Source: an uncultured Methanosarcinales archaeon (GTDB taxonomy: Archaea; Nanobdellota; Nanobdellia; Woesearchaeales; CAZYIM01). From it: DNA of 43,127 nt. The stretch is taken from contig CAZYIM010000023.1 of assembly GCA_964647565.1 (NCBI GenBank), positions 1 to 43,127 on the forward strand. The letters are read 5' to 3'. Positions within the stretch are counted from its first letter, which is position 1; each line of letters starts with the position of its first letter. Below the pieces are notes generated by a model. The model had not been told where the DNA came from. It ran no database searches and was given only the letters and a program-made list of their open reading frames with translations. This document shows positions 1 to 17,510 of this stretch, piece after piece. Both the position numbers and the translations under genes were made by a program.

Positions 1-1050
1 CATGTAAATGGAGTCTTGCTCTATCAGGCTATTGGCCGGCTAGGATTCAACTCAACCCCTTCTCTAAATGGAGTAGGATCTGAATTTGCGATTGGAGGTA
101 TTGGGCGAATACCTTTCAGGAACGGAAAGTGTGGTATGGCATTCGGAATCTATGTTGGCGGAGGAAGAGCAATTCCCGGGGGCATTGACTTATTAGATAT
201 GAATGATAAGGATTTCAACAAAATGCTTCGAGTAAAAGGCCATGGTTATCTTGAGATGATGTACGGCTGGACTATAAATGAGAATATCATGATCTATGCG
301 ACCTTTGGCGGGCCGAATTATAATTTAAATGAATTTGGAAGAAACTTCAGCAAGCTTGATCAGGTCTTAACGCACAATGGTATAGGGGGCCCATATACTG
401 TCAAACCCTATGATGAGAACAATCAAAATGTGAACAGATCAGTTGTGAATTGCAACAGGGGCTCATTGGGAGTCAATTTCAATGTCAACCCGAAGCTCAA
501 GCTAGGATTTGAGCATGTTAACCTGCTTGGTTGTCTTTATGATATCTATCAGGATGAGGTTCAGACCAGTGAGGGTACTTATATCTATCAACAGACGATA
601 TATCCTCACACAATCCAAAACAGACTTGGTTTGAATTTTGAACACAGGCAACCTGTTTTCCTTTTCGGGCCTAAGATGTTGATAACAAAGGGATATTTCT
701 CAGCTCCATATAAAACAGACAAATCCATCTATGATGAGTCTGCATCCATAAAGAAGATAAATACACAAGAGTGGTTGGACTCTCCAGGCCCAATCCATCC
801 CAGAATGAAGGATATCACAGCTCCAATTGCTATAATGGGTGATGTGCCTGCATACAGCTTATATATAGGGCTTATGCCAATAAGCATGAACGGTCTTGGT
901 GTTGAATTGAGTGCAGGACAGATGAGCAATCACTCAGGCGGCAATGGTTTCTTTGTCAACTTCAACCTGAAGTACAACATGGGACTGACAGGACAGCAAA
1001 GGACATCCATGAGCCTGGCGCCAGGCAAGTTCGGCAGCTGGGAACAATAA
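1..1050 (+). CDS. C-terminal part (5'-truncated by window edge) of a paralog-array protein; predicted beta-barrel-like domain
   Basis: Frame is open from base 1 (CAT GTA AAT GGA GTC TTG...), so the TTG at 16 is probably not the real start. Gly/aromatic-rich alternating strands. Visible similarity to the C-terminal domain of the 2116-5073 protein (GLNFEHRQPVFLFG vs GLNGEFNLPLKILG; PAYSLYIGLMP vs PVHSAYLMLKP; NLKYNM vs GIKYDL). Confidence 0.75.
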   Translation, partial: HVNGVLLYQAIGRLGFNSTPSLNGVGSEFAIGGIGRIPFRNGKCGMAFGIYVGGGRAIPGGIDLLDMNDKDFNKMLRVKGHGYLEMMYGWTINENIMIYATFGGPNYNLNEFGRNFSKLDQVLTHNGIGGPYTVKPYDENNQNVNRSVVNCNRGSLGVNFNVNPKLKLGFEHVNLLGCLYDIYQDEVQTSEGTYIYQQTIYPHTIQNRLGLNFEHRQPVFLFGPKMLITKGYFSAPYKTDKSIYDESASIKKINTQEWLDSPGPIHPRMKDITAPIAIMGDVPAYSLYIGLMPISMNGLGVELSAGQMSNHSGGNGFFVNFNLKYNMGLTGQQRTSMSLAPGKFGSWEQ

Positions 1051-1079
1051 CGATTAAAACAAACTAAGAATTTAAAAAA

Positions 1080-2132
1080 ATGATAACACCAACCTTACCA
1101 CCACAACCAACAACAGCTGAAGTACGATTCATCGATCAGCGTGCAGAACATTCACTGCCTATAGGATTATTCATCGTCGAACAAAAACAAGATCTTTCTA
1201 ATTTTTTTGTTGATTTGGATGAGCAATATGTCAATAGGCAACATGATGCAGCTCTCGACACCTTAAACAGAATGTTGGGTGATGATCACTGGAAAAATGA
1301 TCAGCAAAACTATTTCAAGCTGCAGCTATGGAAGATACGATTTGAAAGAACTCAGAACACATTAAACAAATATGATCTTGATAAATTAATGGAACAGAAA
1401 ACGAGTGCTGGGGACAAAACTGATCTTACTGAATTAGAATTCTATATTGCTGAAAAAAATCCCGCCAAGAATAAAAAAGCAATGGAGAAGTTCATCAAGA
1501 GACATGATGATAAGTTGAAAGGAGATGAGTTCTTCTTAGCAGATTACAATATTCAGAGGCGCAGATTCTATGAAAGTAAACGTATTTGGTATGAGGTCTG
1601 GCCATCTGTTAAAAAGATGTTAGACCATGAAGATCATGTGGCGGATTTCTTAAAATCTGAGTTATTATTATGGAAAGGAAACTCCTTGACTGGGCGATTA
1701 AAATCCAATTTTTATCAGTTTAGGGATGCAGAGCCATTATTAGAAAAGATGATTGATGTTTTTCTGGATGTTATAATTAATCACGATTATAAATATGGAT
1801 TTGATCCTGAAACAATGCCCCAGGAAATGAACCATAGATATCTTTTCTGGACTGACACAAAACAAGCTTATACTGATATTTCTAGCAGTAGATATCTAAA
1901 TCCAATTGCAAGAGATGCTTATCAGGAATACTTGAATGCTGCTGAATTGGCAATTCACAATGGAGTATATCCTCCAAGACCTGATCCGAAAGCCTACAGG
2001 GCCTTTGGAATCAAGATGTACAAGACCATTCTGAAGCATGAAGATGATTCCATTTTTCTAAACAAACAAGAATGTGATATTATTAGAAACAGACTTAGAA
2101 CCTTAGGTGAAAATCATGATGCAACCAATTGA
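1080..2132 (+). CDS. Paralog-array protein, short helical (TPR-like) member with Pro-rich/AEVR leader
   Basis: 350-aa ORF. N-terminus MITPTLPPQPTTAEVRFIDQRAEHSLPIGL; family motifs LQLWKIRFER and LTELEFY. Confidence 0.85.
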   Translation: MITPTLPPQPTTAEVRFIDQRAEHSLPIGLFIVEQKQDLSNFFVDLDEQYVNRQHDAALDTLNRMLGDDHWKNDQQNYFKLQLWKIRFERTQNTLNKYDLDKLMEQKTSAGDKTDLTELEFYIAEKNPAKNKKAMEKFIKRHDDKLKGDEFFLADYNIQRRRFYESKRIWYEVWPSVKKMLDHEDHVADFLKSELLLWKGNSLTGRLKSNFYQFRDAEPLLEKMIDVFLDVIINHDYKYGFDPETMPQEMNHRYLFWTDTKQAYTDISSSRYLNPIARDAYQEYLNAAELAIHNGVYPPRPDPKAYRAFGIKMYKTILKHEDDSIFLNKQECDIIRNRLRTLGENHDATN

Positions 2133-5073
2133 TGCTGAAGTAGCTGTGGCTTTTGCTGATGCAAGAGCTGCTGAAGTACGAATTATGGATAATCTTGCAG
2201 AGCATGATGTTCCTGCAGGATTGTTTATTCCACAACAAGATGTCTCTATAGATAGCTTGCTTAAAAGAGTTCAGACTCACTATGAAAATAAAGAGTTCAG
2301 CAATGCACTTGAGTTGCTGAACCGACTCGAAGAGAACCCTGAAGTACAAAGAGAGGCAGATACAAGGACCGAGGTGGAGCTCTACAAGGTGAGGGTTTTG
2401 GAGGCAGACAGCAGCCAGACCCTCACCATTGCAGACATTGATAGGGTTTTGGAGCACAAGAGAGAGCTCAAGAGCAATAAAAATCTTGGAGAGCTGAAAC
2501 TCTATGAAGGTAGGGTAAGAATGAAGCAGGAAGATTACAAGAAAGCCAAGGGTTCTTTTGAAGAAGCGATTAAAAATGCACAACCTGATGAAACAATCCA
2601 TAAGGTTCAGGCCCATATTGAACTTGGAGATGTGCTTTCAGAAAAACTCTTTGAGATTGAAAATGCGCAAGACAATTATATAGCAGCTATGAGTGTGGCA
2701 CATGAAAGATCTAAACAAGGCAAGGACGCTTTTAGACGGGCTGCAAGATTCAATGACTTTACTGATATTGAGGACTCGGATATGAGAGTAAATATGGTTG
2801 AGGCTTCAATAAAATTCTGGAGATGGTCTGTTGACAATCCTCTGAAGCAGATGCAGTTGAGCGTACCATATGGAAAAATTGGAGAATTCTCAAAACCTGA
2901 TATGGACCGAGGAGCTGTCCAGATGCTTAAGAACAATAATATCATACATTTGGCAGATGTCCTTGCAATCAGGATGATGGAGAAGCTGGCAGATGGTAAC
3001 TATATGCATCATATTGATCAGCAAGTGTTTTATTTTCCGTCAAAAGAATCTTTTCTTGAAAGAGAGATCCCTGAGATTCAGGAAGCTTTGTACTGGCTTA
3101 ACCAAGTTAGGGCAACTGGAAGTGGCAAGGCTGATAAATATGAGGATGCACAGGATTTGATTTGCAGGCTTGCTTTGGGACTAGGCAACCTCCAGAAGAC
3201 AGAAGAATACATCGAACGTTATGAAAAAAATATCCTTGATTATAAAAAGATGAGACTTGACTGGTGGATGCAAAGAAAAGGAAAAAAGATCCATGCAATC
3301 AATGATATGATCAAGTTGTTAGCAAAGGACAATTTCGATAGTTTCTATAATGATGCAAAAATAGTCATGGATGTTCCTAAAGATTCTCTTAGTATTGAGA
3401 AACATCATGAACTTGGCCAGAGAGCTATGAACCTGATTGGAGAAGCCATAAATCCTTTTGAAAAAGGTCAAATAGATACAGCTCGAACCAAGATTATCAA
3501 TGCAATTGAATTGAATATCAAGAGATATCCTGGTCTGGATATTGAAGAAGCAAAAGAAAGAGTGCGAAGGGATTTGCGAAATCACCTATATCTTGGCAAG
3601 AAGATCAATGAGGAGGTATATGATCACAAGAAGAATACATCGCTTTGGACAGGGCTTCAAAGGCCAGAGATATACAGGGCTTTAGTTCATCACATGAAAG
3701 GAAATAAGATAACTCGTAATAAGCATATAAACGAAGCTACCCGGCGAAAAGCCAAGGAGGTTGCAGACAGCCTTTTTGTTGATGTCATCTACAAATCACA
3801 GCTCAGAGAGACCACAGAGTACAAGAGAGCTATGATAACAGCTGCAAAAAAGCTTGAAACTGCAAAAGCCGCTGCAGAAGAAACTGTGATGGACGAGATC
3901 AACGATCTTGCAAGGTTTAGATTCTCTGAAATGACTCGGGGTAAATGGCGTGACAAAGCCTTAAAACAGCTGAAATTTTCAATAAATACTGCTTCAAAGA
4001 CCAGATCAGATTCAAGGTTTACACAAGAATTTTCAACAGATATCAGATACAAAGCTATGAGAGATGATCCCACGCCCTTTGTTGGTAAACTAGGTGGGAA
4101 AGCTGACTTTACAGATGGTGGTCAATCGATGGGTGGTACATTAAAATTTGTGCTTCCATTTTCAAGAAAATTTAATGTGTTTTTAGGTGCAGACCTGAAC
4201 AACTATGATGAAGCAACATCACCTATATTATCTTCAGGTCCAATGAAAAATCTGTGGATTGACAGTGACTTAAAAGTTTATTCAGGATTTGGTTTAAGAA
4301 AAGACCATAAGCTGGTTGTTTATTATTATCAGCAAATGAACCATTCAGTATTGAGTGGGACTGGAAGTGTTTTAACACCTGAGATAAAATTGTTAGAAGA
4401 CGCAGGTTACCAACTTGCATCTGAATCTGATTTCCAGGATGAATATGTCGGTCTCTCGAACCATTATGCATTGCTTGGTGCACAGGCAAGACTTACTCAA
4501 AACATTAAGGCAGGTGCTGATCTTATCTATATGTTAAACAATACCAATGGCGGGACAGAATACAAAGGCCAGGCTTTATTTGAAGGTACTGAAGTACCTT
4601 TTGACGCTTCCACACATCATGATGTGACAAGAAACTCTTACTTATTTGGATTGAATGGAGAGTTCAACCTACCGTTGAAAATTCTTGGGAAAGGATATGA
4701 CCTTGTTCTTGGAGGCGGAACCAAGTTAATGCTATATTCTAAATTTGATAAAGGTGAATTTAATGAATACGAAGGTAAAGTCAATATTGACAATCAAGAA
4801 CTGGAAATGACATCTGACTTTGTTGATGACAATCCGGAGCTTGGAAAGCAATTGGCAATGCTGGATCCAAACCCAGTTCATTCAGCATATTTGATGCTAA
4901 AACCCAGAATACCAGGAGGGATCACATTATTTGTTAAAGGGGATGTTTGTGGATATCTAAAAGAACACAGGAACCATAGATTGCAAGTCGGTATAAAATA
5001 CGATCTTGTCAAAGGCAAGACAGTCAGGCAAACAGCGTTAGACCTATTGCCTCCTATTTTTAGAGGTGAATAA
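2116..5073 (+). CDS. Paralog-array protein: AEVR leader + TPR-like helical region + C-terminal beta-barrel-like domain
   Basis: AGGTGA RBS at 2105-2110 favours ATG 2116 over GTG 2107. TPR-like LYEGRVRMKQEDYKKAKGSFEEAIK. Beta-rich from about nt 4070 to RLQVGIKYDL. Confidence 0.85.
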   Translation: MMQPIDAEVAVAFADARAAEVRIMDNLAEHDVPAGLFIPQQDVSIDSLLKRVQTHYENKEFSNALELLNRLEENPEVQREADTRTEVELYKVRVLEADSSQTLTIADIDRVLEHKRELKSNKNLGELKLYEGRVRMKQEDYKKAKGSFEEAIKNAQPDETIHKVQAHIELGDVLSEKLFEIENAQDNYIAAMSVAHERSKQGKDAFRRAARFNDFTDIEDSDMRVNMVEASIKFWRWSVDNPLKQMQLSVPYGKIGEFSKPDMDRGAVQMLKNNNIIHLADVLAIRMMEKLADGNYMHHIDQQVFYFPSKESFLEREIPEIQEALYWLNQVRATGSGKADKYEDAQDLICRLALGLGNLQKTEEYIERYEKNILDYKKMRLDWWMQRKGKKIHAINDMIKLLAKDNFDSFYNDAKIVMDVPKDSLSIEKHHELGQRAMNLIGEAINPFEKGQIDTARTKIINAIELNIKRYPGLDIEEAKERVRRDLRNHLYLGKKINEEVYDHKKNTSLWTGLQRPEIYRALVHHMKGNKITRNKHINEATRRKAKEVADSLFVDVIYKSQLRETTEYKRAMITAAKKLETAKAAAEETVMDEINDLARFRFSEMTRGKWRDKALKQLKFSINTASKTRSDSRFTQEFSTDIRYKAMRDDPTPFVGKLGGKADFTDGGQSMGGTLKFVLPFSRKFNVFLGADLNNYDEATSPILSSGPMKNLWIDSDLKVYSGFGLRKDHKLVVYYYQQMNHSVLSGTGSVLTPEIKLLEDAGYQLASESDFQDEYVGLSNHYALLGAQARLTQNIKAGADLIYMLNNTNGGTEYKGQALFEGTEVPFDASTHHDVTRNSYLFGLNGEFNLPLKILGKGYDLVLGGGTKLMLYSKFDKGEFNEYEGKVNIDNQELEMTSDFVDDNPELGKQLAMLDPNPVHSAYLMLKPRIPGGITLFVKGDVCGYLKEHRNHRLQVGIKYDLVKGKTVRQTALDLLPPIFRGE

Positions 5074-5074
5074 G

Positions 5075-7123
5075 ATGTTCTTCATGCCACCTGCGATGCC
5101 GCCACCTGATGTTCAAAAAAAACCTCCAATCGAAAACATACAAGACCTAAAAAGCAAACCCATTCCCTCAAATTGGGATATTCAGCTCGAAGATCAAAAA
5201 GAGCCGTTTGTTATTTCAAAAACTAATACTACTAATCAAATTCTTATTAAAAAAGAACCACGACTTGAGAAGATACTTAGAAACGGTGCTAATTATCTCG
5301 GCCTTGCCACAACAGATACCCTTCTAAAGAACATTAATATAAGGACAGATCCTAAAGCAAGAAGAGCAGTAGAACTATGGCAGCTTAGATTCAAGAGATG
5401 GAAGGATCTTGGAAAAAACGCTTCTGTCAGACGAATTTTTAACCAGGCGATATATAAAGCAGATTTTAACCTTGAGAACACTGAACCAAAATGGTGGCAA
5501 ACCAGTGATTATGATAATAGGGATCCTCTTTTTTTCACATTCCCCAGTGGCCCTCGAGGAGGATTTGGTCTAAAAAAGGGACAGACAATAGAGGATCTTA
5601 AACGTGAAGACTGGTTATGGGGCCCTCACAATCTAACTGATGTAAACCGCCTTATCAGAAGGATGGAAGCTTCAAATGATACTGCAAGGATTGCAGAACT
5701 CTACTTTTTCAAAGGAGAACTAGAATATGTTCATAAAAGATTTAATGCTGCAAAAAGATCGTTGAGCAAAGTCGAATCAAAAATAGGCGAGCAGTTTTGG
5801 GTACCTGACTATCATTATACCAGTGCAAAGGTTTATGAGGCATTGTCAAAATCTTCTACTGCTAAAAAAGAGATTTTTAAAAAATTTATTTGGGATTATG
5901 CAAAAGCAATAAAGAGTTATGCTATCCTTTCCAATCTGAATAGATGGGACAGGGAAACTGATGCAAGAACACAGCTATATAAAAATCTTAACAAAAAAGA
6001 ACTCAGATTTATTAATAAAGAATGGGTGGATGTCACATCAGATGTCCAAAAAGAAGTATATGCCTGGATGCTTGATAAGGACAATGCAACTGATATGTCT
6101 CCAGGACCACTTTATGAAAAAACAATCATGTCATTCTATCCATTTAGGGAGTGGACAAGAGAACATATGGACAAAGGTTCGGTGTTTGAAGGAAATAAGG
6201 ACTTCCTAAGGGCTTGTATAGATAGTACCATGAATATTATAAACAACAAGGCAAATGAATATTATCTAGAGGCTATCACGAGTTTAGGTCAGTTATATCT
6301 TCAGTCAGAAAAGCCTGCCAAGGCAAGACGGCTTATTGAGGGTTTAATAACTCAATATGATGAACTAAGGGATGCCTATACATTGAGGAACATCCTTAGC
6401 GTGGAATTGTTTGGCTGGAAAAAAGCAGATTTTATCATGAAGACTGAGATCTATGATCGAAATGAACATGAAGCATACTTACGTATCAGGGCTGAAGAGC
6501 GTTTCAGGAATAGCTTTCCCGACATGGTTGATTATGATCAGCAGGTCATCTCCAAGATAAAGCAAATGGTTAGTGATCCAACAGCTTTTAGATTGAGAGC
6601 AGTGCCTGATTCAGTAGATTTTTTCCTGAGATCCCTGCCTAAGTCAGAGAACTATATGGAACTATACCTTAAAGAAGAGATAAACAAGAATATTACCAAG
6701 TTCTATCCTGACTCTGAAGCGATCAGGAATTTCGTTGCATCTGCTCCGAAAAAAGATCTGCATTCAGGAGAACCAATTCCCAAGGATGAATTACTTCATG
6801 AGCTTAACAGATTCTACCAATACTTACCAGCGGAAAAACAGAACTTGATCGAAGATACATATTCTGAATGGTTTCTATCAAAGGAGTATACTGGGTCATT
6901 AAAAGGAGGGGCTTGGACTAAATACAGTAAGGTATCAACAGAAACAGCGATAGCTTATCTTGAAGCCTACAGGCAAATGACATATATTTTGGAAGAAAAA
7001 CCTGCTATTGGCTTTCAGATATTTAATTTCCTTTCCAAATATAACAGTAAGCGGTTCAATGGCTCTCTTTCTAGCGAGTTTGATCGAATAAACAAGCTTT
7101 ACCAAGGAGGAAAGATAAGATGA
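5075..7123 (+). CDS. Paralog-array protein, all-helical TPR-like member with Pro-rich N-terminus
   Basis: GAGGTGA RBS then ATG 5075 (MFFMPPAMPPP). Motifs ELWQLRFKR, IAELYFFKGE, KPAKAR, FGWKKA, ENYMELYLKEE are shared with the 9039 protein. Confidence 0.85.
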   Translation: MFFMPPAMPPPDVQKKPPIENIQDLKSKPIPSNWDIQLEDQKEPFVISKTNTTNQILIKKEPRLEKILRNGANYLGLATTDTLLKNINIRTDPKARRAVELWQLRFKRWKDLGKNASVRRIFNQAIYKADFNLENTEPKWWQTSDYDNRDPLFFTFPSGPRGGFGLKKGQTIEDLKREDWLWGPHNLTDVNRLIRRMEASNDTARIAELYFFKGELEYVHKRFNAAKRSLSKVESKIGEQFWVPDYHYTSAKVYEALSKSSTAKKEIFKKFIWDYAKAIKSYAILSNLNRWDRETDARTQLYKNLNKKELRFINKEWVDVTSDVQKEVYAWMLDKDNATDMSPGPLYEKTIMSFYPFREWTREHMDKGSVFEGNKDFLRACIDSTMNIINNKANEYYLEAITSLGQLYLQSEKPAKARRLIEGLITQYDELRDAYTLRNILSVELFGWKKADFIMKTEIYDRNEHEAYLRIRAEERFRNSFPDMVDYDQQVISKIKQMVSDPTAFRLRAVPDSVDFFLRSLPKSENYMELYLKEEINKNITKFYPDSEAIRNFVASAPKKDLHSGEPIPKDELLHELNRFYQYLPAEKQNLIEDTYSEWFLSKEYTGSLKGGAWTKYSKVSTETAIAYLEAYRQMTYILEEKPAIGFQIFNFLSKYNSKRFNGSLSSEFDRINKLYQGGKIR

Positions 7124-9054
7124 TCGGTCCTATGATGACACCACAGCAAGAAGCTGCGCAAGCATTTGCTAATCCGCAGGCTGCAGAAGTGCGAACATTG
7201 GAGACTGCTATCGAACATAAACTGCCAGAAGGAATGGCATTTCAGCAATCATTAACTAAGGCAGATATTGATTCTCTTAATAAGGAGTTTGAAGTCTGCT
7301 TCTATCATAAGTTTCTTCATCATGGCTTGCACAAAGTAGGCAAGATCCTGAAACAGCCAATGGACAAGCAAACTCGCAACAACTTCAGGCTTTGGGACAT
7401 TAGACTAAAAAGACAGAAGGATATTAGGAGAGGTTATCGCTATGCGTATGGATCTATTCCTGAAAGAATCCAAGACCAGGATTGGAAAATTTATAAGCAA
7501 TATTCTTCTGGCAAGATCTATGGAAATTATAACAAACCTTATGATATAAGAGAGATTATAAGCTTGATACGTGACAAGAAAGCTGTTGGAGATACCTCTA
7601 ATCTTGCAGAGCTTATGTTCTACCAAGGAGAATATGTTCTTTATGCGCCTACAGAGGGCAGTATTACTTTTGATCTGGCTAAATTCTCTAAAGAAGCGAG
7701 AGGGCTCGGGAGGACGGTAGAGGTACCAATAGCAGGTCCTCATGTGAATAAGAACTATTCAATTGAGAATGAAAGATGGGACAAGGCATCGCAGTTCTTT
7801 GACTGGCTAGAAAAAAACAATGCGATCACAGGTCAGTTTTGGAACCAGGACTTCCATGCATATCATGCAATAAAGATGCGAGAAAAATTCGATAAAGCCA
7901 TATTCAACAAACACAAGAAACAAGGCTCCATATCCCTTGAAGATTGGCAGAAGGATAGCTGGAAGCTTAGAGATACGATCACTCTCATTCAGAGAGCTTA
8001 TGAGTGTGGCGATCTTGGCAATAAATCGCGTACTCGATACTTTAATGATGGGTTAAAAGAATTAAAATATCTAGCTACTGTCGAGATCAAGGATACAGCA
8101 GGAGTCAATCTAGCTGAACCATATAACAGAAAGATCCTGGACTGGATGAGAGACAAACTTGAATCCCGTACTTTATTTAGAATAGCAGAGAATTATGTTG
8201 ATAATAATAAATTTATTCCGCCTATCAAGGAGTTTATAGAGACTGTTCTTACAAACAATCTTAGTAAGAGCTACATTTATGATGTTTTATATGGGGATGA
8301 TAATCAATTCTTATTTAGCAAATTTTGGCTGAAGACAGAAAAACCTGGAGTGGTCAGGAAAAACCTTTTTGATATGTACAAAAAATATGGATCAATATGG
8401 GTGAACGCAGTAACAGAAGAAATAGAGGAGGAGTGGTTTATCAAATTTGACAATTGGAAGGCTGCTGAGTTCAAGATCGAGGCAGCCATATACAAAGATG
8501 AAAAGACAGCATATGTCTTGATGCGGGCTAAGGAGCAATTCAGAGATGATTTCGACTCGATTGACAATTATTTGAATGCAGTTGTGCCACGGATAGAAAG
8601 ATTCCTTTCAAATCCAGACGATCTTGGACATAATCCTGAATTTGCAGAGTTAGATGCATTTCTTAACAATATACCTGATTCGAAAAACTATATGGCGCTT
8701 TTTCTAAGGGAGGAAGTTGAGAAAATTGTGCAAAGTTACTTTGTTGATGAGCCTCTAAGACAAGCCGCACTAAAGCACAAAGTGAGTGGATTAGAAAAAG
8801 AAAGAAGGCAGAGCTATTCAACTCCTGTAGGACCTGCAGGTTATTATCAGGAGCTATTTGGGAAACATATATCCAAATTAGAAGCAGTAAAGGCATTCAC
8901 CTATATTTTGGAAGGTGATGAGGAATACGCACAAAAGCTGACCGAGAAGACAAAATCCTATTTTTCAAAAACTTTTTCAGACGAGTTCGATAAGACAATT
9001 ACAGATTTCAAAAAACAAGTCGAAGAAGGTAAGATACCATGTTTCAACCGATGA
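7120..9054 (+). CDS. Paralog-array protein, all-helical member with AEVR leader
   Basis: ATGA overlap with the previous gene. Leader MIGPMMTPQQEAAQAFANPQAAEVR; motifs LWDIRLKR, LAELMFYQGE, KNYMALFLREE. Confidence 0.85.
   Translation: MIGPMMTPQQEAAQAFANPQAAEVRTLETAIEHKLPEGMAFQQSLTKADIDSLNKEFEVCFYHKFLHHGLHKVGKILKQPMDKQTRNNFRLWDIRLKRQKDIRRGYRYAYGSIPERIQDQDWKIYKQYSSGKIYGNYNKPYDIREIISLIRDKKAVGDTSNLAELMFYQGEYVLYAPTEGSITFDLAKFSKEARGLGRTVEVPIAGPHVNKNYSIENERWDKASQFFDWLEKNNAITGQFWNQDFHAYHAIKMREKFDKAIFNKHKKQGSISLEDWQKDSWKLRDTITLIQRAYECGDLGNKSRTRYFNDGLKELKYLATVEIKDTAGVNLAEPYNRKILDWMRDKLESRTLFRIAENYVDNNKFIPPIKEFIETVLTNNLSKSYIYDVLYGDDNQFLFSKFWLKTEKPGVVRKNLFDMYKKYGSIWVNAVTEEIEEEWFIKFDNWKAAEFKIEAAIYKDEKTAYVLMRAKEQFRDDFDSIDNYLNAVVPRIERFLSNPDDLGHNPEFAELDAFLNNIPDSKNYMALFLREEVEKIVQSYFVDEPLRQAALKHKVSGLEKERRQSYSTPVGPAGYYQELFGKHISKLEAVKAFTYILEGDEEYAQKLTEKTKSYFSKTFSDEFDKTITDFKKQVEEGKIPCFNR
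7132..7184 (+). repeat. 53-nt exact direct repeat, copy 1 (copy 2 at 9051-9103)
   Basis: ATGATGACACCACAGCAAGAAGCTGCGCAAGCATTTGCTAATCCGCAGGCTGC is identical at both sites. Confidence 0.95.
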
Positions 9055-11291
9055 TGACACCACAGCAAGAAGCTGCGCAAGCATTTGCTAATCCGCAGGC
9101 TGCTGAAGTTAGGATGGTTAAGAATCAGTCAACTGATACGCCTCAAGATGGCCAAAAGCAAGGGAAACACATTAGATATTCTACCCAGAAGGATATCAAT
9201 CTTAATGACTTTATATTCCATAATCCCAAAACTGGCCAGAATGTCAGGCTAGTGATACCAAAAAAAGAGGATATTCATCCTGATTTGAAAGATGATATGA
9301 AGAGATTAGAGCTTTATCTGTCTGAAGGCGCCAGTGCTCTTGGTCTCCAGGCTGCTGATAGTCTCTTACAATCTGTGAAAGTAAAGGAGAATCCTGATTT
9401 GGGCAGACATATCAGGCTCTGGAAGCAGAGGTTCAAGAGACGGCATTATCTGTTCAACTGGAGAATGCCCGGAAAAAACACAAAAGCACTTCATGATGCA
9501 GAATTTAAGGCGAGCTGGAAAGATCCGATAAAAGTGCCGTCTGACTGGTTCAATGAAGAAGGATATAAGGGTGATGAGTATGATCATAACAAATTGGCAA
9601 GTCGGTTCTTTAGGATATTTCATAGACGAATAGATGATGCTCCAAGCATAGAGCCCTTTGAAAAGACACATTATTTTTTAAGAACTGAATCTGTGCCAAA
9701 TGGCAAGTTTAAATGGGGTTATCCTGAATATATGTGGGTGAAAAGATTCAATCAGGACACTACTTTTAATGCTCCTAATCTAGAAGAAGTTGATAGACTC
9801 ATAAGAGCCGAAGAGATATCTGGCAGCAAAGCTAACCTTGCAGAGCTTTACTTCTATAAGGGAGAGCTGGAATATTTTGTCGGAAGGTTTGGTGACGCAA
9901 AACAAACCTTTGAACGGGTCGAAGAAGCAATAAATGATCAGTTTTGGAGGGGTGATTACCTGTTTACCAAGGCAGCCCTGAATCATAAATTATTAGATCG
10001 TGCTGTTGCTAATGAGCTGGAACAAAAAGGAGCTATCAGCCAGAAGGGCTGGAATAGGCATGGCGTATTTATGGCTGAGGCCTTAGCTAACTATCTGAAA
10101 GCCTTTATCATATACGACTCTGGATCTAATCTGCACCGTTCTGATAGGATGCATTTTTGTTGGAAAACTATTTTCAAGCTTGCTGCAAGGGAATTTCCTG
10201 ATGCGCACGGAAAAGAGCTTTCATCTGAAATTACAGACAATTTTTATGATATACTATTAAAAAATATTGACTACGCGCCTTATTGGTATGGTGGCAAGAA
10301 GCCGTCTAAAGCTTTTAGTTTCCTTAAGATGATGGAAGAATACGCTAGTGAAGCTGTTGTCAACCATAAAAACAGGAATTTCCTGACAGCTTGTGCAGAT
10401 TCTGTGATGACTTTGGAAAATAGAAATTCAAGGAATTATGTACATGCGTTAGTAAACCTTGGCCAGGTATTTCTGCAGACAAAAGCTCCTGCAAAAGCAA
10501 GGGCAAAGATTGAGCAGCTAATGAAAGATCACGAGGAATACAGGGAAGCTTATGCATTACGGGAGATAATGAGTGAGCAGTACTTTGGCTGGAAAAAAGC
10601 CAATTTCCTTGTCCAGAATGACTTCTATAACAGTAATCCGTGGGAGACTTATCTGAGAATCAGGACAAAAGAAGAGTATGCAGAAAAGTTTACAGATCCC
10701 TTAGAATATGAAAGCAAGATAGTTACCAAGATTATGGAGTTGATTAAAGATCCTCTAGCTTTTAGCCAGAAAATAGATTTAGACTCAGTAGATATGTTCC
10801 TTTTTAATCTGCCAAATGCTGAGAATTACATGGAGCTTTACCTAAAGGAAGAGCTTGCAGATGAGATTAGGAAATACTATCCAGACAGTGCTATGGTACT
10901 GGAGTTTGGAAAAGAATTGCAGCCTGTATTCTCATCCTCTAAACCATTTCCCAAACAGCAGATCATTGATGAAATAATGAGCTTTTACGATCATCATCCT
11001 GAGGAGAAGTTGAAGATGATAGAGAATGCGTATTCACAAATACTAACAAGGGAGAGTTATGATGAGTACATTCGGGGTCCCTGGCATAACTACAACGGTT
11101 TCAAGCCGGAGATGGTCATTGGCAAACTCGAGGCTATGAGATTGCTTAGTTATGAGCTTGAAAAACAACCTCAATTGTCATATAATCAATTTGACTACCT
11201 TAAAACTCACAACACCCATGCGTTTATGAACCATGTCTGGAATGAAAAATACCGTTTGAGCGGATTTGCTAGAGAAGGAAAGATCAAATGA
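9039..11291 (+). CDS. Paralog-array protein, all-helical TPR-like member with AEVR leader
   Basis: Leader MFQPMMTPQQEAAQAFANPQAAEVR; motifs LWKQRFKR and LAELYFYKGELEYFVGRFGDAK. Closest in body to 5075-7123. Confidence 0.85.
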   Translation: MFQPMMTPQQEAAQAFANPQAAEVRMVKNQSTDTPQDGQKQGKHIRYSTQKDINLNDFIFHNPKTGQNVRLVIPKKEDIHPDLKDDMKRLELYLSEGASALGLQAADSLLQSVKVKENPDLGRHIRLWKQRFKRRHYLFNWRMPGKNTKALHDAEFKASWKDPIKVPSDWFNEEGYKGDEYDHNKLASRFFRIFHRRIDDAPSIEPFEKTHYFLRTESVPNGKFKWGYPEYMWVKRFNQDTTFNAPNLEEVDRLIRAEEISGSKANLAELYFYKGELEYFVGRFGDAKQTFERVEEAINDQFWRGDYLFTKAALNHKLLDRAVANELEQKGAISQKGWNRHGVFMAEALANYLKAFIIYDSGSNLHRSDRMHFCWKTIFKLAAREFPDAHGKELSSEITDNFYDILLKNIDYAPYWYGGKKPSKAFSFLKMMEEYASEAVVNHKNRNFLTACADSVMTLENRNSRNYVHALVNLGQVFLQTKAPAKARAKIEQLMKDHEEYREAYALREIMSEQYFGWKKANFLVQNDFYNSNPWETYLRIRTKEEYAEKFTDPLEYESKIVTKIMELIKDPLAFSQKIDLDSVDMFLFNLPNAENYMELYLKEELADEIRKYYPDSAMVLEFGKELQPVFSSSKPFPKQQIIDEIMSFYDHHPEEKLKMIENAYSQILTRESYDEYIRGPWHNYNGFKPEMVIGKLEAMRLLSYELEKQPQLSYNQFDYLKTHNTHAFMNHVWNEKYRLSGFAREGKIK
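9051..9103 (+). repeat. 53-nt exact direct repeat, copy 2
   Basis: Identical to 7132-7184; identity resumes (GAAGT) after one mismatch. Confidence 0.95.
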
Positions 11292-13072
11292 TGATTCCAA
11301 TGATATCACCACAAGCAGAGGCAGCAGCCATCTTTGCAGATGTAAGGGCTGTAGAAGTTCGTACCTTAGAAGATTCTGTAGAGCATAAGCTGCCAACTGG
11401 ATTTACTTTCCAGGACAGTGTTAAACTTGATTCTGTGATGATCAAGGCTCAAAAATGCTATGAAGAACAGTGTTATGAGGCTGGAATCGCTATTATTGAC
11501 TCTGTTCTAGAGCAGGAAGCAGCTCTGAAGCAGGATTTAAATTTCTACAAGCAGGCTCAGCTTTGGAAAATCAGGTTCGAAAGGGCGGATGAGATGAATA
11601 AGGTATGGTTGTATGAAGTATATCCCTATATTACCACAACAGCCTATGAAATAGACCAGTTAATAACCCAGAAAGAGAGCAGTAGGGATGCGGAAAGTCT
11701 AGGAGAGCTTTATCTTTACAAGGGAGAGCTGGAAATCCGTAATAATAACCTTGAAAAGGCAAAAAAGGCTCTTTATTGGGCAGAATTGGTCAGCGAAGGA
11801 AAATTTTGGGAACCAGAGCTTGACTATGCCAAAACTCGTCTAGAACACATGAAGTTTCTTGAGAATATTGAAGATATCAAGGGAAAATCTATTAGCCTCA
11901 ACAAGTGGGACAAAACCCAGAGGCAACTGCATAAGATCGTGACAGGTTATCTTAAGTATGCAGATGATTATATAAAAAATCCAGATTCACAACACCTATT
12001 GAAAGGCAGGTTTTGGGCCGTGAACTTTGATTTGTTTGATTTCGCTAACTTGCAGTTCTTTCACGATAAAAAAGACCTTATGGATCCAATCAGGGAGGAG
12101 ATCTTGGATATGATTGTTCAACTCATCCCTCATTGGGCAGAAATGGTTGATTTCACGCCTGATAGATTCAGGCTCGACATGGTCAGAGGATATACAGAAA
12201 AAAAACAATACAATGATATTACTACTAAGTTCTTTGAGGACCAGTTAACAAGTATGCAGGCAAGGACAAATCAGAAAACCCAGTTATATTCTGACGTCCT
12301 TATAGCTCAAGGAGAGCTCTATCTGCGAGCTTTTGAGCCTCTTGATTCAAGGCAAAAGATAGCTCAATTGATAGAGGAACATCCTAAACATAAAGTGGAT
12401 TCCATAACCGAGAAAGTTGTTTTTGATGGCTGGCTAAGACAGGAATATGCAAGAAGAATTCTTTTTGCAGGCATGCAAATCAATTTTTATCAAATTAAAT
12501 ATCACTTAGGACAGTTGCAGGCTGTTTTTGACAGGACTAAACGGACTGATGATCTCCTTTCAGATTTTATAAATCCTTTGCAGGAGAATTATTTAGAATA
12601 TCATGCAAGAAGAAGATTCAAGATTCAAGAATATGCAACTGAGCATGAAGGGCTTAAAAATGCTATCCAGACAGCTGTTTTGCATCCTGAAAATGCCAAG
12701 AATGATTCAATTGCAGCCTATCTGCTAACCCTGCCTGTACCTGAAGACAAGGAAACTGGATATATCTTCCTGCATATGAAGGACAAGCTTAAGCATAATA
12801 AGCTTGACAAGCTTGATCTGCCTTTAAAAACTGAGCATATAATTCTGGACATGCTTGAACAGCATTTAAGGCACGGAGACAAGATCCGTCCACCTACTGA
12901 AGAATATGAAATCCATCCGGGTAGGACCTTGGGTATTCTTTACGGACAATTAAAAAGAACTTATACTAAGGCTAAGGATTGGGATGGATTTGAGCCAATC
13001 TTTATATCGATCAATCGTAGCATATATCCAAGACCATTTTGGGATGCCTTTTGGTTCAGACTTAATAAATAA
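11288..13072 (+). CDS. Paralog-array protein, all-helical TPR-like member with AVEVR leader
   Basis: ATGA overlap. Leader MMIPMISPQAEAAAIFADVRAVEVRTLEDSVEHKLP; motifs LWKIRFER and LGELYLYKGE. Confidence 0.85.
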   Translation: MMIPMISPQAEAAAIFADVRAVEVRTLEDSVEHKLPTGFTFQDSVKLDSVMIKAQKCYEEQCYEAGIAIIDSVLEQEAALKQDLNFYKQAQLWKIRFERADEMNKVWLYEVYPYITTTAYEIDQLITQKESSRDAESLGELYLYKGELEIRNNNLEKAKKALYWAELVSEGKFWEPELDYAKTRLEHMKFLENIEDIKGKSISLNKWDKTQRQLHKIVTGYLKYADDYIKNPDSQHLLKGRFWAVNFDLFDFANLQFFHDKKDLMDPIREEILDMIVQLIPHWAEMVDFTPDRFRLDMVRGYTEKKQYNDITTKFFEDQLTSMQARTNQKTQLYSDVLIAQGELYLRAFEPLDSRQKIAQLIEEHPKHKVDSITEKVVFDGWLRQEYARRILFAGMQINFYQIKYHLGQLQAVFDRTKRTDDLLSDFINPLQENYLEYHARRRFKIQEYATEHEGLKNAIQTAVLHPENAKNDSIAAYLLTLPVPEDKETGYIFLHMKDKLKHNKLDKLDLPLKTEHIILDMLEQHLRHGDKIRPPTEEYEIHPGRTLGILYGQLKRTYTKAKDWDGFEPIFISINRSIYPRPFWDAFWFRLNK

Positions 13073-13081
13073 CATGATAAA

Positions 13082-15007
13082 ATGATACCAATACCAATTC
13101 CTTCGCCAATTGAAATACCTCAGGCAGAAGTACGCTTCATTGAGCAGCAAGAAAATGTGAAGATTCCTGAAGGACTTGTGATTCCTGGAATGCAGCAGGA
13201 CACTAAAAAAGACTCTCTTTTTTCAAAACTGGAGAAGGAATACTTCAGATGGCGGAGGGATCCGACCCTAAAAGAGTTGCATGAGCAAGTCCAGAAATCC
13301 CTTTGGGATGATAGCTCCAAGAAAGATCCTGCAAAGTACTTGAGGCTTCAGCTTTGGGATATACGCTTAAACAGAAGATTTGGACAGAAGCATACATTAT
13401 ATGATATTGAACAGCTGCTCGAGCACAAAAAAACACTATATGATAATAAGGATTTTGCTGAACTACACTTCTATACTGGCGAAAAGCGCATGCTGAGCAA
13501 GAGGTATACTGAGGCTCAAAAAGCCTTTAAAGAAGCAAGGCAAGCTGTTGACTGCCCAAAACAATTCATCGATGACCTGATCTTTCTTGAAGCAGAGGCA
13601 TTCTGGAAGTCAGGGGATATTGGCGAAGCAACAGAGCTGTACAAGCAGGTTTTGACCATGGAACGATCTGGAATCCATGAATTTCTCTATATTTCTGAGC
13701 TTAAAGCTATAAGGGGATCTCCATTATCCGGCGAAGATCCAGACAGTTATTTCTATCAAAGAGAGAGCATAATAAGGATTGACCAGGCAATAGAAGATTA
13801 TGATAAGAAAAAGCAATACTTTGAAGCAATGCAATTATGCAAGTTTATGGCAGAAAAAACAAGTCTGGATACAAGCACCAAGAAAAGCTATGACAAGCTT
13901 AGAAAAGAGATCAAGACCAAGATGCTCAGGAGAGGCATGATCAATTTCTCTACAGGAGCGCTTTATTTAGGCTCTAACGGAGGCGCATTTAATTTTGTCT
14001 ATAATCCAGGAAGGTTTGACAGGGATGTCTGTGGTATGAGTATCGGACTAGGTCTGATTCCAGAAATTATTAATGAAACGAACCACAAGAAGTCTATAAA
14101 AGCATTGAAATGGTCAGAGATAGGCAATCCTTTATTCAGGGATGCGTTTAGAGAGACAGATTTCCTGCTTATAGAGGGTAAACCCGGGTTTGGCGCTGGT
14201 CTTTTAGGAAGAGAGTATGTTCATGTTTTTGAGCAATTTAAGTATGGAAAAAGATTCAAGTTCAATAATCATATGTATATTGAGGGATGGGTAAACACCA
14301 GAGTTTTGGATTTAGATATGGATGTTGATTATACTGTAGGAGAAGATGGTGAGCTTATAACTGTTGAATCATCAGGAAGTACAGCTTTTGACAATGCGTT
14401 TAGGCAGGATATTTTACAGAACTCCTCTTTTAATTTTACAGAGGGCGATACAGTATATTTTGACTATTTCAAGGCAGGGGGAGAATATGAGCAGATGACC
14501 ATTAATCCTCATATTGGCCTCGGATTTCATAACCTTAACTTAATAAAATCAGCCGGGATAATCCTGGATTACATTGGTCTTGCATACGAAAGATTTGACT
14601 CTGGAACAGACAATCTTGAGGTTTATCGTGATGGTAATGAACTTTCAGAGGAGTTGGTAAAGAAACAAATACAGAACTATTGGCCAAGAGTCACCTCTAA
14701 TGATCTTGTTTTCCAGGGAGAGATCACTTTATTATCTTCAGATCATCTTAATGCAGGATTCAGATATATGCGTAGGTTTGGTAATGAGCAAAGCCAAGGC
14801 CTGAAATCCATCAAGAATATCTATCTTGATAACAGGACAGAACAATTTTTAGGCCTTGACGTGATGGCAAAATTGCCATTAGATGGATTTCTAGGCAGAC
14901 TGGTTTTCCAAGCGACATATTCCTGGTTGCATACAGCATTGGACAGGGATTACCATCTTTTCAGAATGGGCGTTTCTGTAATATCTAAAGATAGACCCTT
15001 CCATTAG
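13082..15007 (+). CDS. Paralog-array protein: AEVR leader + TPR-like region + C-terminal beta-barrel-like domain
   Basis: Leader MIPIPIPSPIEIPQAEVR; LQLWDIRLNR, FAELHFYTGE; TPR-like AEAFWKSGDIGEATELYKQVL. Beta-rich from about nt 13935 ending HLFRMGVSVIS. Confidence 0.85.
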   Translation: MIPIPIPSPIEIPQAEVRFIEQQENVKIPEGLVIPGMQQDTKKDSLFSKLEKEYFRWRRDPTLKELHEQVQKSLWDDSSKKDPAKYLRLQLWDIRLNRRFGQKHTLYDIEQLLEHKKTLYDNKDFAELHFYTGEKRMLSKRYTEAQKAFKEARQAVDCPKQFIDDLIFLEAEAFWKSGDIGEATELYKQVLTMERSGIHEFLYISELKAIRGSPLSGEDPDSYFYQRESIIRIDQAIEDYDKKKQYFEAMQLCKFMAEKTSLDTSTKKSYDKLRKEIKTKMLRRGMINFSTGALYLGSNGGAFNFVYNPGRFDRDVCGMSIGLGLIPEIINETNHKKSIKALKWSEIGNPLFRDAFRETDFLLIEGKPGFGAGLLGREYVHVFEQFKYGKRFKFNNHMYIEGWVNTRVLDLDMDVDYTVGEDGELITVESSGSTAFDNAFRQDILQNSSFNFTEGDTVYFDYFKAGGEYEQMTINPHIGLGFHNLNLIKSAGIILDYIGLAYERFDSGTDNLEVYRDGNELSEELVKKQIQNYWPRVTSNDLVFQGEITLLSSDHLNAGFRYMRRFGNEQSQGLKSIKNIYLDNRTEQFLGLDVMAKLPLDGFLGRLVFQATYSWLHTALDRDYHLFRMGVSVISKDRPFH

Positions 15008-15077
15008 GAATTTAGCATAAAAACAATAACACTTATAAACAAATCAAGGTTCTTTCGTCGGAAAGGAGTTGATAATC

Positions 15078-15623
15078 ATGGTAGAAAAGAAAGAAAGTGC
15101 AAAAAAGGCTGAAAAGGCCAAAAAAGGCGACTTAGTTGTCGTTCACTACACAGGTACATTGGGAGATGGTACTGTATTTGATAGTTCTGAAGGAAAAGAC
15201 CCTCTTTCATTCCCGCTTGGAGCTGGAATGGTTATCAAGGGCTTTGAGGACGCTATTGAAGGTATGGCTGTTGGGGAAGAGAAGGAAGTTCACTTAACCA
15301 AGGACGAGGCCTATGGAGATCCTAATCCTGAATTGGTAAAGGAGATACCTAAAGCAGCTCTTGAAGGCAGCAATATTGAGCTTAAGGTAGGTATTGTTTT
15401 GGCTTTTAAAGTAGACCAGACAGGTCAGGTCATTCCAGGCAAGGTTATGAAGATTGGTGATGAGACCATCACTATCGACATAAACCCTCCTTTAGCTGGA
15501 AAAAATCTTAATTTTAAGATAAAACTGGTCGATGTCAAGGACGCTCCAAAGGAAGAACCTAAGCAAGAACCTAAGTGCGAACCTGAAGAAGGAGATGCAT
15601 GCGGCTGCGGCCACGAACATTAG
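15078..15623 (+). CDS. slyD: FKBP-type peptidyl-prolyl cis-trans isomerase (SlyD-like, with insert-in-flap and short Cys/His tail)
   Basis: VHYTGTLGDGTVFDSS, GMVIKGFEDAIEGM, AYG, IDINPPLAGKNLNFKI; tail CGCGHEH. GGAG RBS favours ATG 15078. Confidence 0.93.
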   Translation: MVEKKESAKKAEKAKKGDLVVVHYTGTLGDGTVFDSSEGKDPLSFPLGAGMVIKGFEDAIEGMAVGEEKEVHLTKDEAYGDPNPELVKEIPKAALEGSNIELKVGIVLAFKVDQTGQVIPGKVMKIGDETITIDINPPLAGKNLNFKIKLVDVKDAPKEEPKQEPKCEPEEGDACGCGHEH

Positions 15624-15635
15624 AATCGATACAAA

Positions 15636-15684
15636 AGAAAAGCTTGTTGAGCTTTTCTAGGCTTCAGAAACCTTTGGTTTCCGA
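15636..15684 (+). terminator. Two adjacent hairpins after the PPIase gene, likely terminator
   Basis: AGAAAAGCT/AGCTTTTCT (15636-15658) and GAAACC/GGTTTC (15667-15681), followed by a T-rich run. Confidence 0.5.
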
Positions 15685-15722
15685 AATTTTTATTAAGACT
15701 TCTTTATTTTTTTATATTTACT

Positions 15723-16088
15723 ATGGGTAGCTTTGTAGAACTTAATGATACGCTTCAGATAACCTCTGAGCAGGGATTTCCCTCTGAGCTTAATCTGGAA
15801 ACTCATAGAAATAAGCCCTTTTCTGCAGATGATTTTAAGGGTAAAATCTTTGAATTTAAGGATAAGCCTAATCTGAGAATATATCATTCTGCGCCAACAA
15901 GAGTGTTTTTAGTGCACAATATTGATGGGAAATGGCTATATTGGGGCCATGTCCAGATAATAGAGCAAACTCTTCATTCAGATACTAAAACTACTTCAGG
16001 TAAGTTTATCATAACAAAGATATATCTGCCTGATTACCAGGAGCAGATCAGCAAGTTTGAGGTTGATCCTGGCAAAGAATATTTTTAG
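15723..16088 (+). CDS. Conserved hypothetical protein
   Basis: 121-aa ORF with natural composition (MGSFVELNDTLQIT...GKWLYWG), preceded by an AT-rich TATA-like region. No function recognised. Confidence 0.75.
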   Translation: MGSFVELNDTLQITSEQGFPSELNLETHRNKPFSADDFKGKIFEFKDKPNLRIYHSAPTRVFLVHNIDGKWLYWGHVQIIEQTLHSDTKTTSGKFIITKIYLPDYQEQISKFEVDPGKEYF

Positions 16089-16116
16089 ATTTCTAACTGG
16101 ATTCTATGATTATAAT

Positions 16117-16152
16117 AAAAAAGAAAAAAAGCTCCCCTTGGATTCAGGGGAG
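16117..16152 (-). terminator. Hairpin + U-tract terminator downstream of ftsZ
   Basis: CTCCCCT/AGGGGAG stem (16132-16152) next to a + strand A-run (U-run on the minus transcript). Confidence 0.65.
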
Positions 16153-16255
16153 AAAAGGTTGGTCTCCACGTGAGTTTTTCGTTGGGGGTGATGTGAAACA
16201 GTGAAGACCAAGAAGTCATCCATGAGTATGAAAACCCCTTAATGGGGGGTTTTTC

Positions 16256-17326: not shown

Positions 17327-17430
17327 TTTGGTGTCCCCCTCGTTTTTATTTTCCTATTGATTTGTATTCTCAAAACTATATTTTCGAATACCAAAATATT
17401 TATATCTAACTTAGTCTATCTTCTTTCTAG

Positions 17431-17510
17431 AAAACGCCAAACTTTTGATTAAAAAGTCTTAATCAACGTCGCCAAACGTTATTAAGAAAGGTTCTCGCCA
17501 AAAAACCTAT
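17431..17510 (-). promoter_or_regulatory. ftsZ upstream region with three CGCCAAA (minus: TTTGGCG) motifs in hairpin loops
   Basis: CGCCAAA at 17435, 17470 and 17496; stems AACGT/ACGTT and AGGTT/AACCT; TTGATTAA/TTAATCAA hairpin at 17445-17466. Confidence 0.5.

Follow-up and report, generated by a model that had tools for sequence, protein, structure and literature searches.

An expanded orphan family of leader-bearing tetratricopeptide repeat proteins, some with predicted beta-barrel ends, in a DPANN-type archaeon

The stretch of DNA analyzed here (the window) comprises the first 43,127 bases of contig CAZYIM010000023.1 (C23), starting at contig base 1, from assembly GCA_964647565.1 of an uncultured archaeon placed by GTDB in the Woesearchaeales, and its positions 1-15007 hold an array of eight open reading frames (ORFs), O1 to O8. 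We found that these genes form an orphan family which is restricted to one lineage and expanded in it: at least 18 demonstrably related genes are located on four contigs of this one genome in two loci, and their products combine an N-terminal leader, a tetratricopeptide repeat (TPR) module and either a predicted barrel or a helical extension, in a DPANN-type host and in loci framed by secreted proteins. The family is real and ordered, and its modelled fold is surprising for an archaeon. From this architecture we infer function and membrane insertion: the best explanation, which we put somewhat short of an even chance with export and membrane placement judged jointly, is a diversifying family of envelope or host-interface proteins that would leave the cell by a leader-dependent route. 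The terms of a first-pass annotation made from the letters of this DNA ("secretion system", "multi-subunit envelope complex" and "co-exported effectors") are likewise interpretive.

The paralogous array and its wider family

O1 to O8 all lie on the plus strand and are tightly packed, neighbours either overlapping by 4-26 nt or standing 9-29 nt apart, and their coordinates bear out the eight same-strand ORFs noticed in the first-pass annotation. In an all-against-all BLASTP comparison of O2-O8, 18/21 pairs matched at E<=1e-3 (all except O2-O4, O3-O4 and O3-O6), O4 and O6 sharing 32% identity over 690 aa (E 2e-105). An N-terminal module of ~150 aa is common to all seven, O4, O5, O6 and O7 are alike over most of their length, and the C-terminal domain of O8 is shared with genes elsewhere in the genome. 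O1 gave 0/7 BLASTP matches to the other members and nothing in hhalign, and its membership is presumed from position and composition alone. Of the eight or more paralogs first claimed, seven are therefore demonstrated and one is presumed within the window, and at least 18 are found genome-wide. The motif (L/F)(A/G/T)EL..(F/Y).(G/A)E is present in 7/7 of O2-O8 and LWxxRxxR in six (O3 has ELYKVRVLE instead), so that only the former of the two motifs ascribed to all seven holds throughout; an (A/V)EVR leader is carried by six of the seven (O4 excepted), whereas the stricter A(A/V)EVR previously credited to six occurs in four (O3, O5, O6 and O7).

The modular build described earlier is evident along the array. 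O1 (1-1050) is a beta-rich 3' part of 349 aa whose 5' side is open at the contig start. O2 (1080-2132, 350 aa) is the short form, with a TAEVR leader, a TPR-like N-module and ~200 aa rich in helix formers, and matches O8 at E 4e-16. In O3 (2107-5073, 988 aa), leader and TPR module are followed by a long middle region rich in helix formers and then by a beta-rich end of ~350 aa. O4 (5066-7123, 685 aa, variant leader MPPAMPP), O5 (7120-9054, 644 aa, canonical leader) and O7 (11288-13072, 594 aa) are long forms without a beta-rich end, and O6 (9039-11291, 750 aa) is a long helical form modelled as all-alpha at low confidence. In O8 (13082-15007, 641 aa) the leader and a TPR module (~43-283) are followed by a predicted closed beta-barrel of 12-14 strands (~293-634). 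The last codons of O4, O5 and O6 (..GGKIR, ..EGKIPCFNR and ..EGKIK; 7104-7123, 9023-9041 and 11272-11290) are written by GGAGG/GAAGG-AAAGAT, which resembles a ribosome-binding site for the gene that follows; C-terminal residues and translation start signals would thus be coupled.

Relatives on other contigs (C37_x, C33, C52_z) were found when the whole genome was searched with tblastn and with a profile. Nine further related genes stand in a row on C37 (6117-24154), where a tenth ORF of the array, C37_h, shares only the MPPAMPP leader variant of O4; C33 has one related gene at its very start, and C52 one 3'-open related gene at its very end. C37 breaks off within the leader of a further copy, its final 48 nt being identical to the leader of the gene on C33, and C33 starts with 26 nt that are the sequence upstream of C37_f; these identities between contig ends and leader sequences indicate that the assembler broke at repeats. 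Exact overlaps of at least 12 nt were absent between the contig ends of C52 and C23 and of C37 and C33. It is likely that locus A is C37, possibly followed by C33, and locus B is C52, possibly followed by C23, both joins being presumed. The first-pass annotation expected the array to continue upstream, which agrees with a window that begins at contig base 1 and with paralogs on three other contigs. Both loci are headed by paralogous TPR proteins (1,220 and 1,234 aa) with signal-peptide-like N-termini. Further, a long helical-plus-beta member with an LDLLP.I tail occurs once per locus (O3 and C37_e), and so does the MPPAMPP leader variant (O4 and C37_h); these paired layouts suggest an old segmental duplication. 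The family occupies about 40 kb of the genome.

For relatives outside the genome, a profile of nine family members was searched against 1.84 billion representative proteins (E<=1e-3), the kind of check that had been suggested for this array, and it returned 16 matches: 15 had 98.3-100% identity to paralogs from this same genome and the remaining one was an unrelated generic TPR protein. Word-based searches with O8, O3 620-988 and the O4-O7 alignment gave self or nothing. Six-frame searches matched 0/40 genomes of the same order and gave no real match in 400 genomes of the same class, where a single 35-residue match of 17.6 bits was at chance level, and a conserved-pattern search of genome contigs with a family alignment gave 106 matches and no relative. 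Nothing exceeded the Pfam cut-offs (best, TPR_2 in O8, whose 21.7 bits fall short of the required 27), NCBIfam matches were only of TPR type (YbgF, HemY) and far below cut-off, the best match in a sequence search of the PDB was a designed TPR at E 0.02, and neither PHROG nor PADLOC gave a match. A family without a described counterpart, as first proposed, is thus what the sequence searches returned. A defence-system reading was dropped on the empty PADLOC result, and so was a viral reading, PHROG being empty and the Foldseek matches in BFVD being phage-borne porin or autotransporter barrels or giant-virus TPR proteins with low TM-scores. The public protein clusters P0013, P0004 and P0011 are 98.3%, 99.8% and 99.3% identical to O5, C37_f and the C37_a C-terminus, indicating that close strains have been assembled elsewhere. 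In the portions of the literature returned by searches on DPANN and archaeal beta-barrels, Woesearchaeota TPR proteins and porins, no archaeal family of porin-type barrels is described; an excerpt of one paper mentions a possible distant PopA barrel relative in the DPANN Altiarchaeales (PMC12228718).

Predicted fold and the conserved leader

An AlphaFold2 model of O8 was built with its eight closest paralogs, all from one genome, and had a mean predicted local distance difference test score (pLDDT) of 65. Residues 1-63 are disordered in the model (pLDDT ~30), residues 43-283 form twelve helices, and residues 293-634 form long antiparallel strands in which ten-residue blocks mostly have pLDDT 70-94. 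The strands are 12-17 residues long and have a conserved apolar face. Foldseek against the PDB gave 22 matches at E<=1e-3, all of them bacterial outer-membrane barrels bar one low-probability match, among them chitoporin, OmpT, EstA, BcsC (9b8a), PelBC (9h80), TodX, PorB, NalP and FapF. In an unbiased VIA structure search of 48,161 chains, residues 283-638 matched OmpG (2f1c; Z 12.2, 226 aligned, root-mean-square deviation (rmsd) 4.7), CymA (Z 12.0, 253 aligned), KdgM (Z 11.7, 162 aligned), FapF (Z 11.2, 201 aligned) and NalP (Z 10.6, 222 aligned), and there was no soluble beta fold among the 50 matches listed. These five, the best structural matches of the domain, have 4-11% sequence identity to O8 at rmsd 3.5-5.1 A and no sequence-level relation to it, and the modelled likeness to OmpG-type porins is one of fold class only. 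In the N-terminal part, residues 37-216 matched the TPRs of PlcR, LGN and kinesin light chain (KLC) with Z ~13, and the whole of 37-284 matched TPR structures with Z 12-14, a range common for helical repeats. As modelled, the O8 N-module has a stacked helical repeat fold of the TPR type. The TPR-like and, at least for the O8 type, barrel-like character first read from the letters is thus supported by the structure prediction and Foldseek comparison that had been suggested as checks, O8 matching both bacterial outer-membrane barrels and TPRs.

The barrel domain was also compared across other members. In the strand columns of O8 read in eight other members, the mean |h(i)-h(i+1)| was 3.19 vs 2.33 for |h(i)-h(i+2)|, a period-2 hydrophobicity, and in the helices the order reverses. 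A hidden Markov model (HMM) of the barrel domain built from 10 members recovered nine of them among the genome ORFs, the tenth, C37_g, holding an assembly gap and being left out of the ORF set. We predict that the O8-type C-terminus is a porin-like closed barrel of ~12-14 strands, present in 10 members by sequence. The Gly+Asn+Ser+Asp content of O1, O3 641-988 and C37_e 431-844 is like that of the O8 barrel (0.29-0.32 vs 0.18-0.22 in helical parts), and O3, C37_e and O1 are probably of barrel type too. The barrel HMM and hhalign left O1, C52_z and the C-termini of O3 and C37_e unlinked to the O8-type barrel and to each other (probabilities <1), and BLASTP of O1 against O3 gave E 0.16. Of the three beta-rich ends noticed at first, that of O8 is therefore modelled as a barrel, and those of O1 and O3 641-988 are beta-rich by composition and not similar in sequence to it. 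Language-model neighbours of O8 290-641 and O3 640-988 were the outer-membrane barrel clusters DUF6850, SlipAM, YaiO and BcsC_C (0.91-0.94), those of the O3 C-terminus also including phage hypothetical clusters (0.92-0.94 with DUF6850 and BcsC_C); by the tool's own calibration such neighbours are a lead only. O6, folded with O4, O5 and O7, was all-alpha with a mean pLDDT of 52.6, its confident parts being helical repeats.

Most members start with TPQQEAAQMF.AEQAAEVRTLDNLTTHNVPAGL, an acidic N-terminal leader of ~35-40 aa, and upstream stop codons exclude longer N-termini for the window ORFs. Across five full-length members, identity is 77% in the first 40 residues vs 26% in the remainder, and identical residues are written by the identical codon in 73% of cases in the leader vs 43% in the rest. 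In the DNA, an 87-nt repeat spans gene junction and leader on the plus strand, with a reference copy at the O4/O5 boundary (7104-7190), a second copy, 87% identical to it, at the O5/O6 boundary (9023-9109) and a third, more diverged copy (66% identical) at the O6/O7 boundary (11272-11358). The excess codon identity suggests gene conversion, and synonymous differences between leader copies do exist. Since the leader is conserved and shows both features, we conclude that it is kept by peptide selection and by short-tract recombination. The ...VPAG of the leader resembles a GG-type site only loosely, and with no C39 peptidase found in the genome the proteins do not fit the double-glycine-leader cargo of peptidase-containing ABC exporters. 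Legumain-type cleavage after a leader Asn was rejected, N or D not being conserved at that place in O2, O5 and O7. Complex prediction between the leader (1-40) and the TPR/helical part (41-330), run without controls, scored 0.00, which weighs neither for nor against binding.

Archaeal host and probable soundness of the assembly

The genome measures 2.68 Mb in 86 contigs and is 86.9% complete with 1.85% contamination; it is the only member of its family in the collection compared, and the 40 genomes of the same order are all smaller (0.6-2.1 Mb). Downstream of the array the window encodes FtsZ, Orc1/Cdc6, ATP-dependent DNA ligase, an archaeal-type D-aminoacyl-tRNA deacylase, TrmB, RtcB and archease. 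The RtcB is closest to metagenome-assembled genomes of Candidatus Woesearchaeota (71-74% identity) and then to Nanoarchaeota and Pacearchaeota records, and these flank genes agree with the DPANN-type archaeon of the first-pass annotation. The organism was detected in 8 marine or seawater metagenome runs from 2 studies, with no RNA run listed among them.

We consider a mis-assembly of 1-15007 unlikely on three grounds. The tetranucleotide correlation to the rest of the genome is 0.970 for the window array and 0.937 for the C37 array, compared with a median of 0.977 and a 5th percentile of 0.888 among 129 genome chunks of 15 kb. Word depth in independent Logan contigs, followed across 1-17500, is flat at ~4-5 on either side of 15007 in 2 runs and uneven but continuous across that junction in 2 further runs, which in the coverage check recommended for 15007-15078 speaks for continuity, with the qualification on bridging pieces given below. 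C33, in turn, joins a paralog to archaeal-type P0, L1 and NFACT genes. Single Logan contigs from other runs match the window up to 1080, 6419, 6688, 15719 or 16129 and then continue as unlike sequence; position 1080 is exactly the O2 start codon, and 15719 lies just before a 121-aa ORF. These break points may be population variants with another cassette order, or assembly tangles at repeats.

Export, membrane placement and competing readings

If the family serves the envelope or the host interface, its proteins would act at the cell envelope or the host-contact zone, with the leader as a dedicated Sec-independent export or targeting tag that a TPR receptor may recognise or the C37-encoded peptidase may cut off. 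Barrel forms would become channels or anchors in a lipid membrane, either that of the host or an outer layer belonging to the archaeon, while TPR modules would bind partner peptides and barrel-less forms would be adaptors. Diversification would proceed by duplication and leader-mediated recombination, as in paralogous outer-membrane protein families of host-associated bacteria. The envelope context consists of the signal-peptide-bearing TPR giants, lipobox-like proteins on C33, a protein with PKD and immunoglobulin (Ig)-like domains on C52 and a C13 peptidase on C37, all near the loci.

Several observations weigh against this reading, whose uncertainty is mostly about export and membrane insertion. 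Signal peptides and transmembrane helices occur in 0/20 family ORFs (maximum 19-residue Kyte-Doolittle mean 1.54), which gives them the look of cytoplasmic proteins. A search of the 86.9%-complete genome for Omp85/BamA (PF01103) at E<=0.1 gave 0 matches, as did one for the C39 peptidase (PF03412), each control being positive in 7/14 genomes; with the R of the EVR motif replaced by I in 2/14 leaders, these searches have pointed to no cleavage site or exporter. Part of the leader conservation, as judged by the excess codon identity, is recombinational and not functional. The barrel is predicted from one model made with paralogs of a single genome, whole-chain TM-scores of O8 to solved barrels are low (0.2-0.4), and O1, O3 and C37_e have no sequence similarity to the O8 barrel or to each other by HMM and hhalign. 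Only 3/12 readable beta-type C-termini end in an aromatic residue (W or Y), and several carry short extensions past the last predicted strand. Among the listed Logan pieces none bridges 15052-15407 (they stop at 15052 and resume at 15407). To our knowledge, the DPANN cells described so far have one membrane.

A stronger form of the envelope reading, which we hold to be rather unlikely, is that these proteins are the first archaeal family of true transmembrane beta-barrel channels, free of a Sec signal, exported by a new leader-dependent route and inserted in the host membrane or in the cell's own outer layer, where they would be conduits at the DPANN-host contact and where about twenty recombining paralogs would let the specificity for hosts or partners vary. 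Porin-type barrels, a kind of membrane channel, typify the outer membranes of bacteria and organelles and are not known from archaea. How DPANN archaea take up metabolites from their hosts, and through what physical conduit, is an open question, and the predicted TPR-plus-barrel family supplies concrete, clonable candidates both for such a conduit and for a new export signal. Even if the function differs, the genes are a clear case of a large orphan family born and expanded in one lineage, with gene starts homogenised by recombination.

The main rival is a cytoplasmic scaffold or chaperone family, in which the TPRs would organise intracellular partners, the beta domain would be soluble or oligomerising and the leader would be an assembly or regulatory tail, partly gene-converted. 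We regard it as unlikely, though with an appreciable share of the probability: it would account for the 0/20 count of signal peptides and transmembrane helices, for an Omp85 that was not found in the genome, for the SlyD-like FKBP chaperone gene 62 nt downstream on the same strand, for 4/8 window genes without any beta domain, and for the share of recombination in leader conservation that codon identity indicates. However, the structural matches of the beta domain are all integral outer-membrane barrels, with no soluble beta fold in the 50 listed, the strands of 12-17 residues keep a conserved apolar face, and the loci are surrounded by signal-peptide proteins; moreover, the lumen of a barrel of 12-14 strands is too wide for a hydrophobic core, which speaks against a soluble domain. 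If the archaeon were instead diderm, with an outer membrane or a lipid-containing outer layer of its own, the family would be resident porins or anchors and not aimed at a host. This we consider improbable. The porin-like model of O8, the 10 barrel paralogs by sequence and the size of the genome relative to its 40 relatives, a hint of a less reduced and more autonomous cell, would suit it, as would the possible barrel relative in Altiarchaeales mentioned in the excerpt of PMC12228718, but Omp85 and signal peptides were both not found, and the family has no match beyond the one at chance level in 400 same-class genomes and so cannot be a basic envelope component of the lineage. The parts of the literature returned by our searches contain no microscopy of the organism.

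A chimera or mis-binning, in which 1-15007 would come from a diderm bacterium or a virus and have been joined to archaeal DNA by the assembler, is very improbable. A fold otherwise bacterial, assembly breaks within the repeated leaders, a depth of only ~5x with no listed piece bridging 15052-15407 and the lack of an identified archaeal marker on C37 and C52 would fit such an origin; nevertheless, paralogs are joined to archaeal genes on two independent contigs (FKBP, FtsZ and Orc1 on C23; P0, L1 and NFACT on C33), both arrays have tetranucleotide correlations inside the genome's own range, word depth is unbroken across the junction in all 4 runs, contamination is estimated at 1.85%, and neither bacterial or viral sequence relatives nor the signal peptides expected of bacterial outer-membrane proteins were found.

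The order of domains in O8, an N-terminal TPR part followed by a C-terminal closed barrel, is also that of the bacterial proteins BcsC, PgaA, PelB and Slam, of which the first three serve exopolysaccharide export and Slam is the surface lipoprotein assembly modulator (PF04575). BcsC and PelBC are among the Foldseek matches of O8 and SlipAM and BcsC_C among its language-model neighbours, and the Slam barrel has 14 strands, close to the ~12-14 predicted here. Unlike those proteins, the family has no signal peptide, no barrel assembly machinery (BAM) was found, the host is archaeal and the acidic leader is conserved; the eight window proteins have no match to PF04575 or PF05420 at E<=0.1, and a PF04575 search of the genome gave nothing, a result of little weight since its control was positive nowhere. 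BcsC-type proteins are encoded by one gene inside a synthase operon, whereas the family has at least 18 arrayed paralogs, and the ORF lists of the loci showed neither a glycosyltransferase nor a synthase gene.

In its genomic behaviour the family resembles Treponema Tpr, Helicobacter Hop, Anaplasma Msp2/P44 and Chlamydia Pmp, which diversify by recombination: expansion within one lineage, a conserved terminus beside a variable remainder, tandem arrangement and traces of gene conversion at the conserved end are shared. Mycobacterial PE/PPE proteins are exported independently of Sec through a conserved N-terminal domain, and the family likewise combines a conserved N-terminus with the absence of a Sec signal. 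No homology to any of these was found, nor was a dedicated exporter, ESX-like or other; the N-domains of PE/PPE proteins are folded and helical, whereas the model shows the family leader disordered. The N-module had its best structural matches among peptide-binding TPR proteins, namely the quorum-sensing receptors PlcR, Rap and NprR, LGN and kinesin light chain (Z 12.5-14, 136-211 aligned); the family has no helix-turn-helix or phosphatase domain, and its Pfam TPR scores are below cut-off.

Beside the arrays, a scan of the ORFs with 150 aa or more identified neither a secretion ATPase nor a pore gene. Ahead of locus A, C37 1-2394 (+) encodes a 5'-open protein of at least 797 aa whose C-terminus matches Peptidase_C13 (PF01650, 24-26 bits vs a cut-off of 22.8) and has the His and Cys motifs ...NHGG... 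and ...DQCYSGG...; judged by this sequence evidence, the C-terminal domain is a clan-CD (C13-like) cysteine peptidase, and no other C13 match in the genome exceeds the cut-off. Three internal repeats of ~170-190 aa, with ..RPEWG.EFK.. recurring, precede it. After the C33 paralog, ORFs of 150, 545 and 560 aa follow on the same strand (C33 1996-5865, +), the two longer ones having signal-peptide/lipobox-like N-termini (..FLNRCSS and ..YFSGCGN), and none of the three has a Pfam or NCBIfam match. Adjoining locus B on the opposite strand is a surface-type protein of at least 2,266 aa (C52 2-6799, -) with five PKD domains together with Ig-like and fibronectin-III domains. Downstream of the window array, 62 nt after O8 and on the same strand, lies a gene for an FKBP-type peptidyl-prolyl isomerase (15069-15623, +; PF00254, E 1e-24), whose product carries an acidic tail rich in Cys and His (...CEPEEGDACGCGHEH), like that of SlyD-like chaperones.

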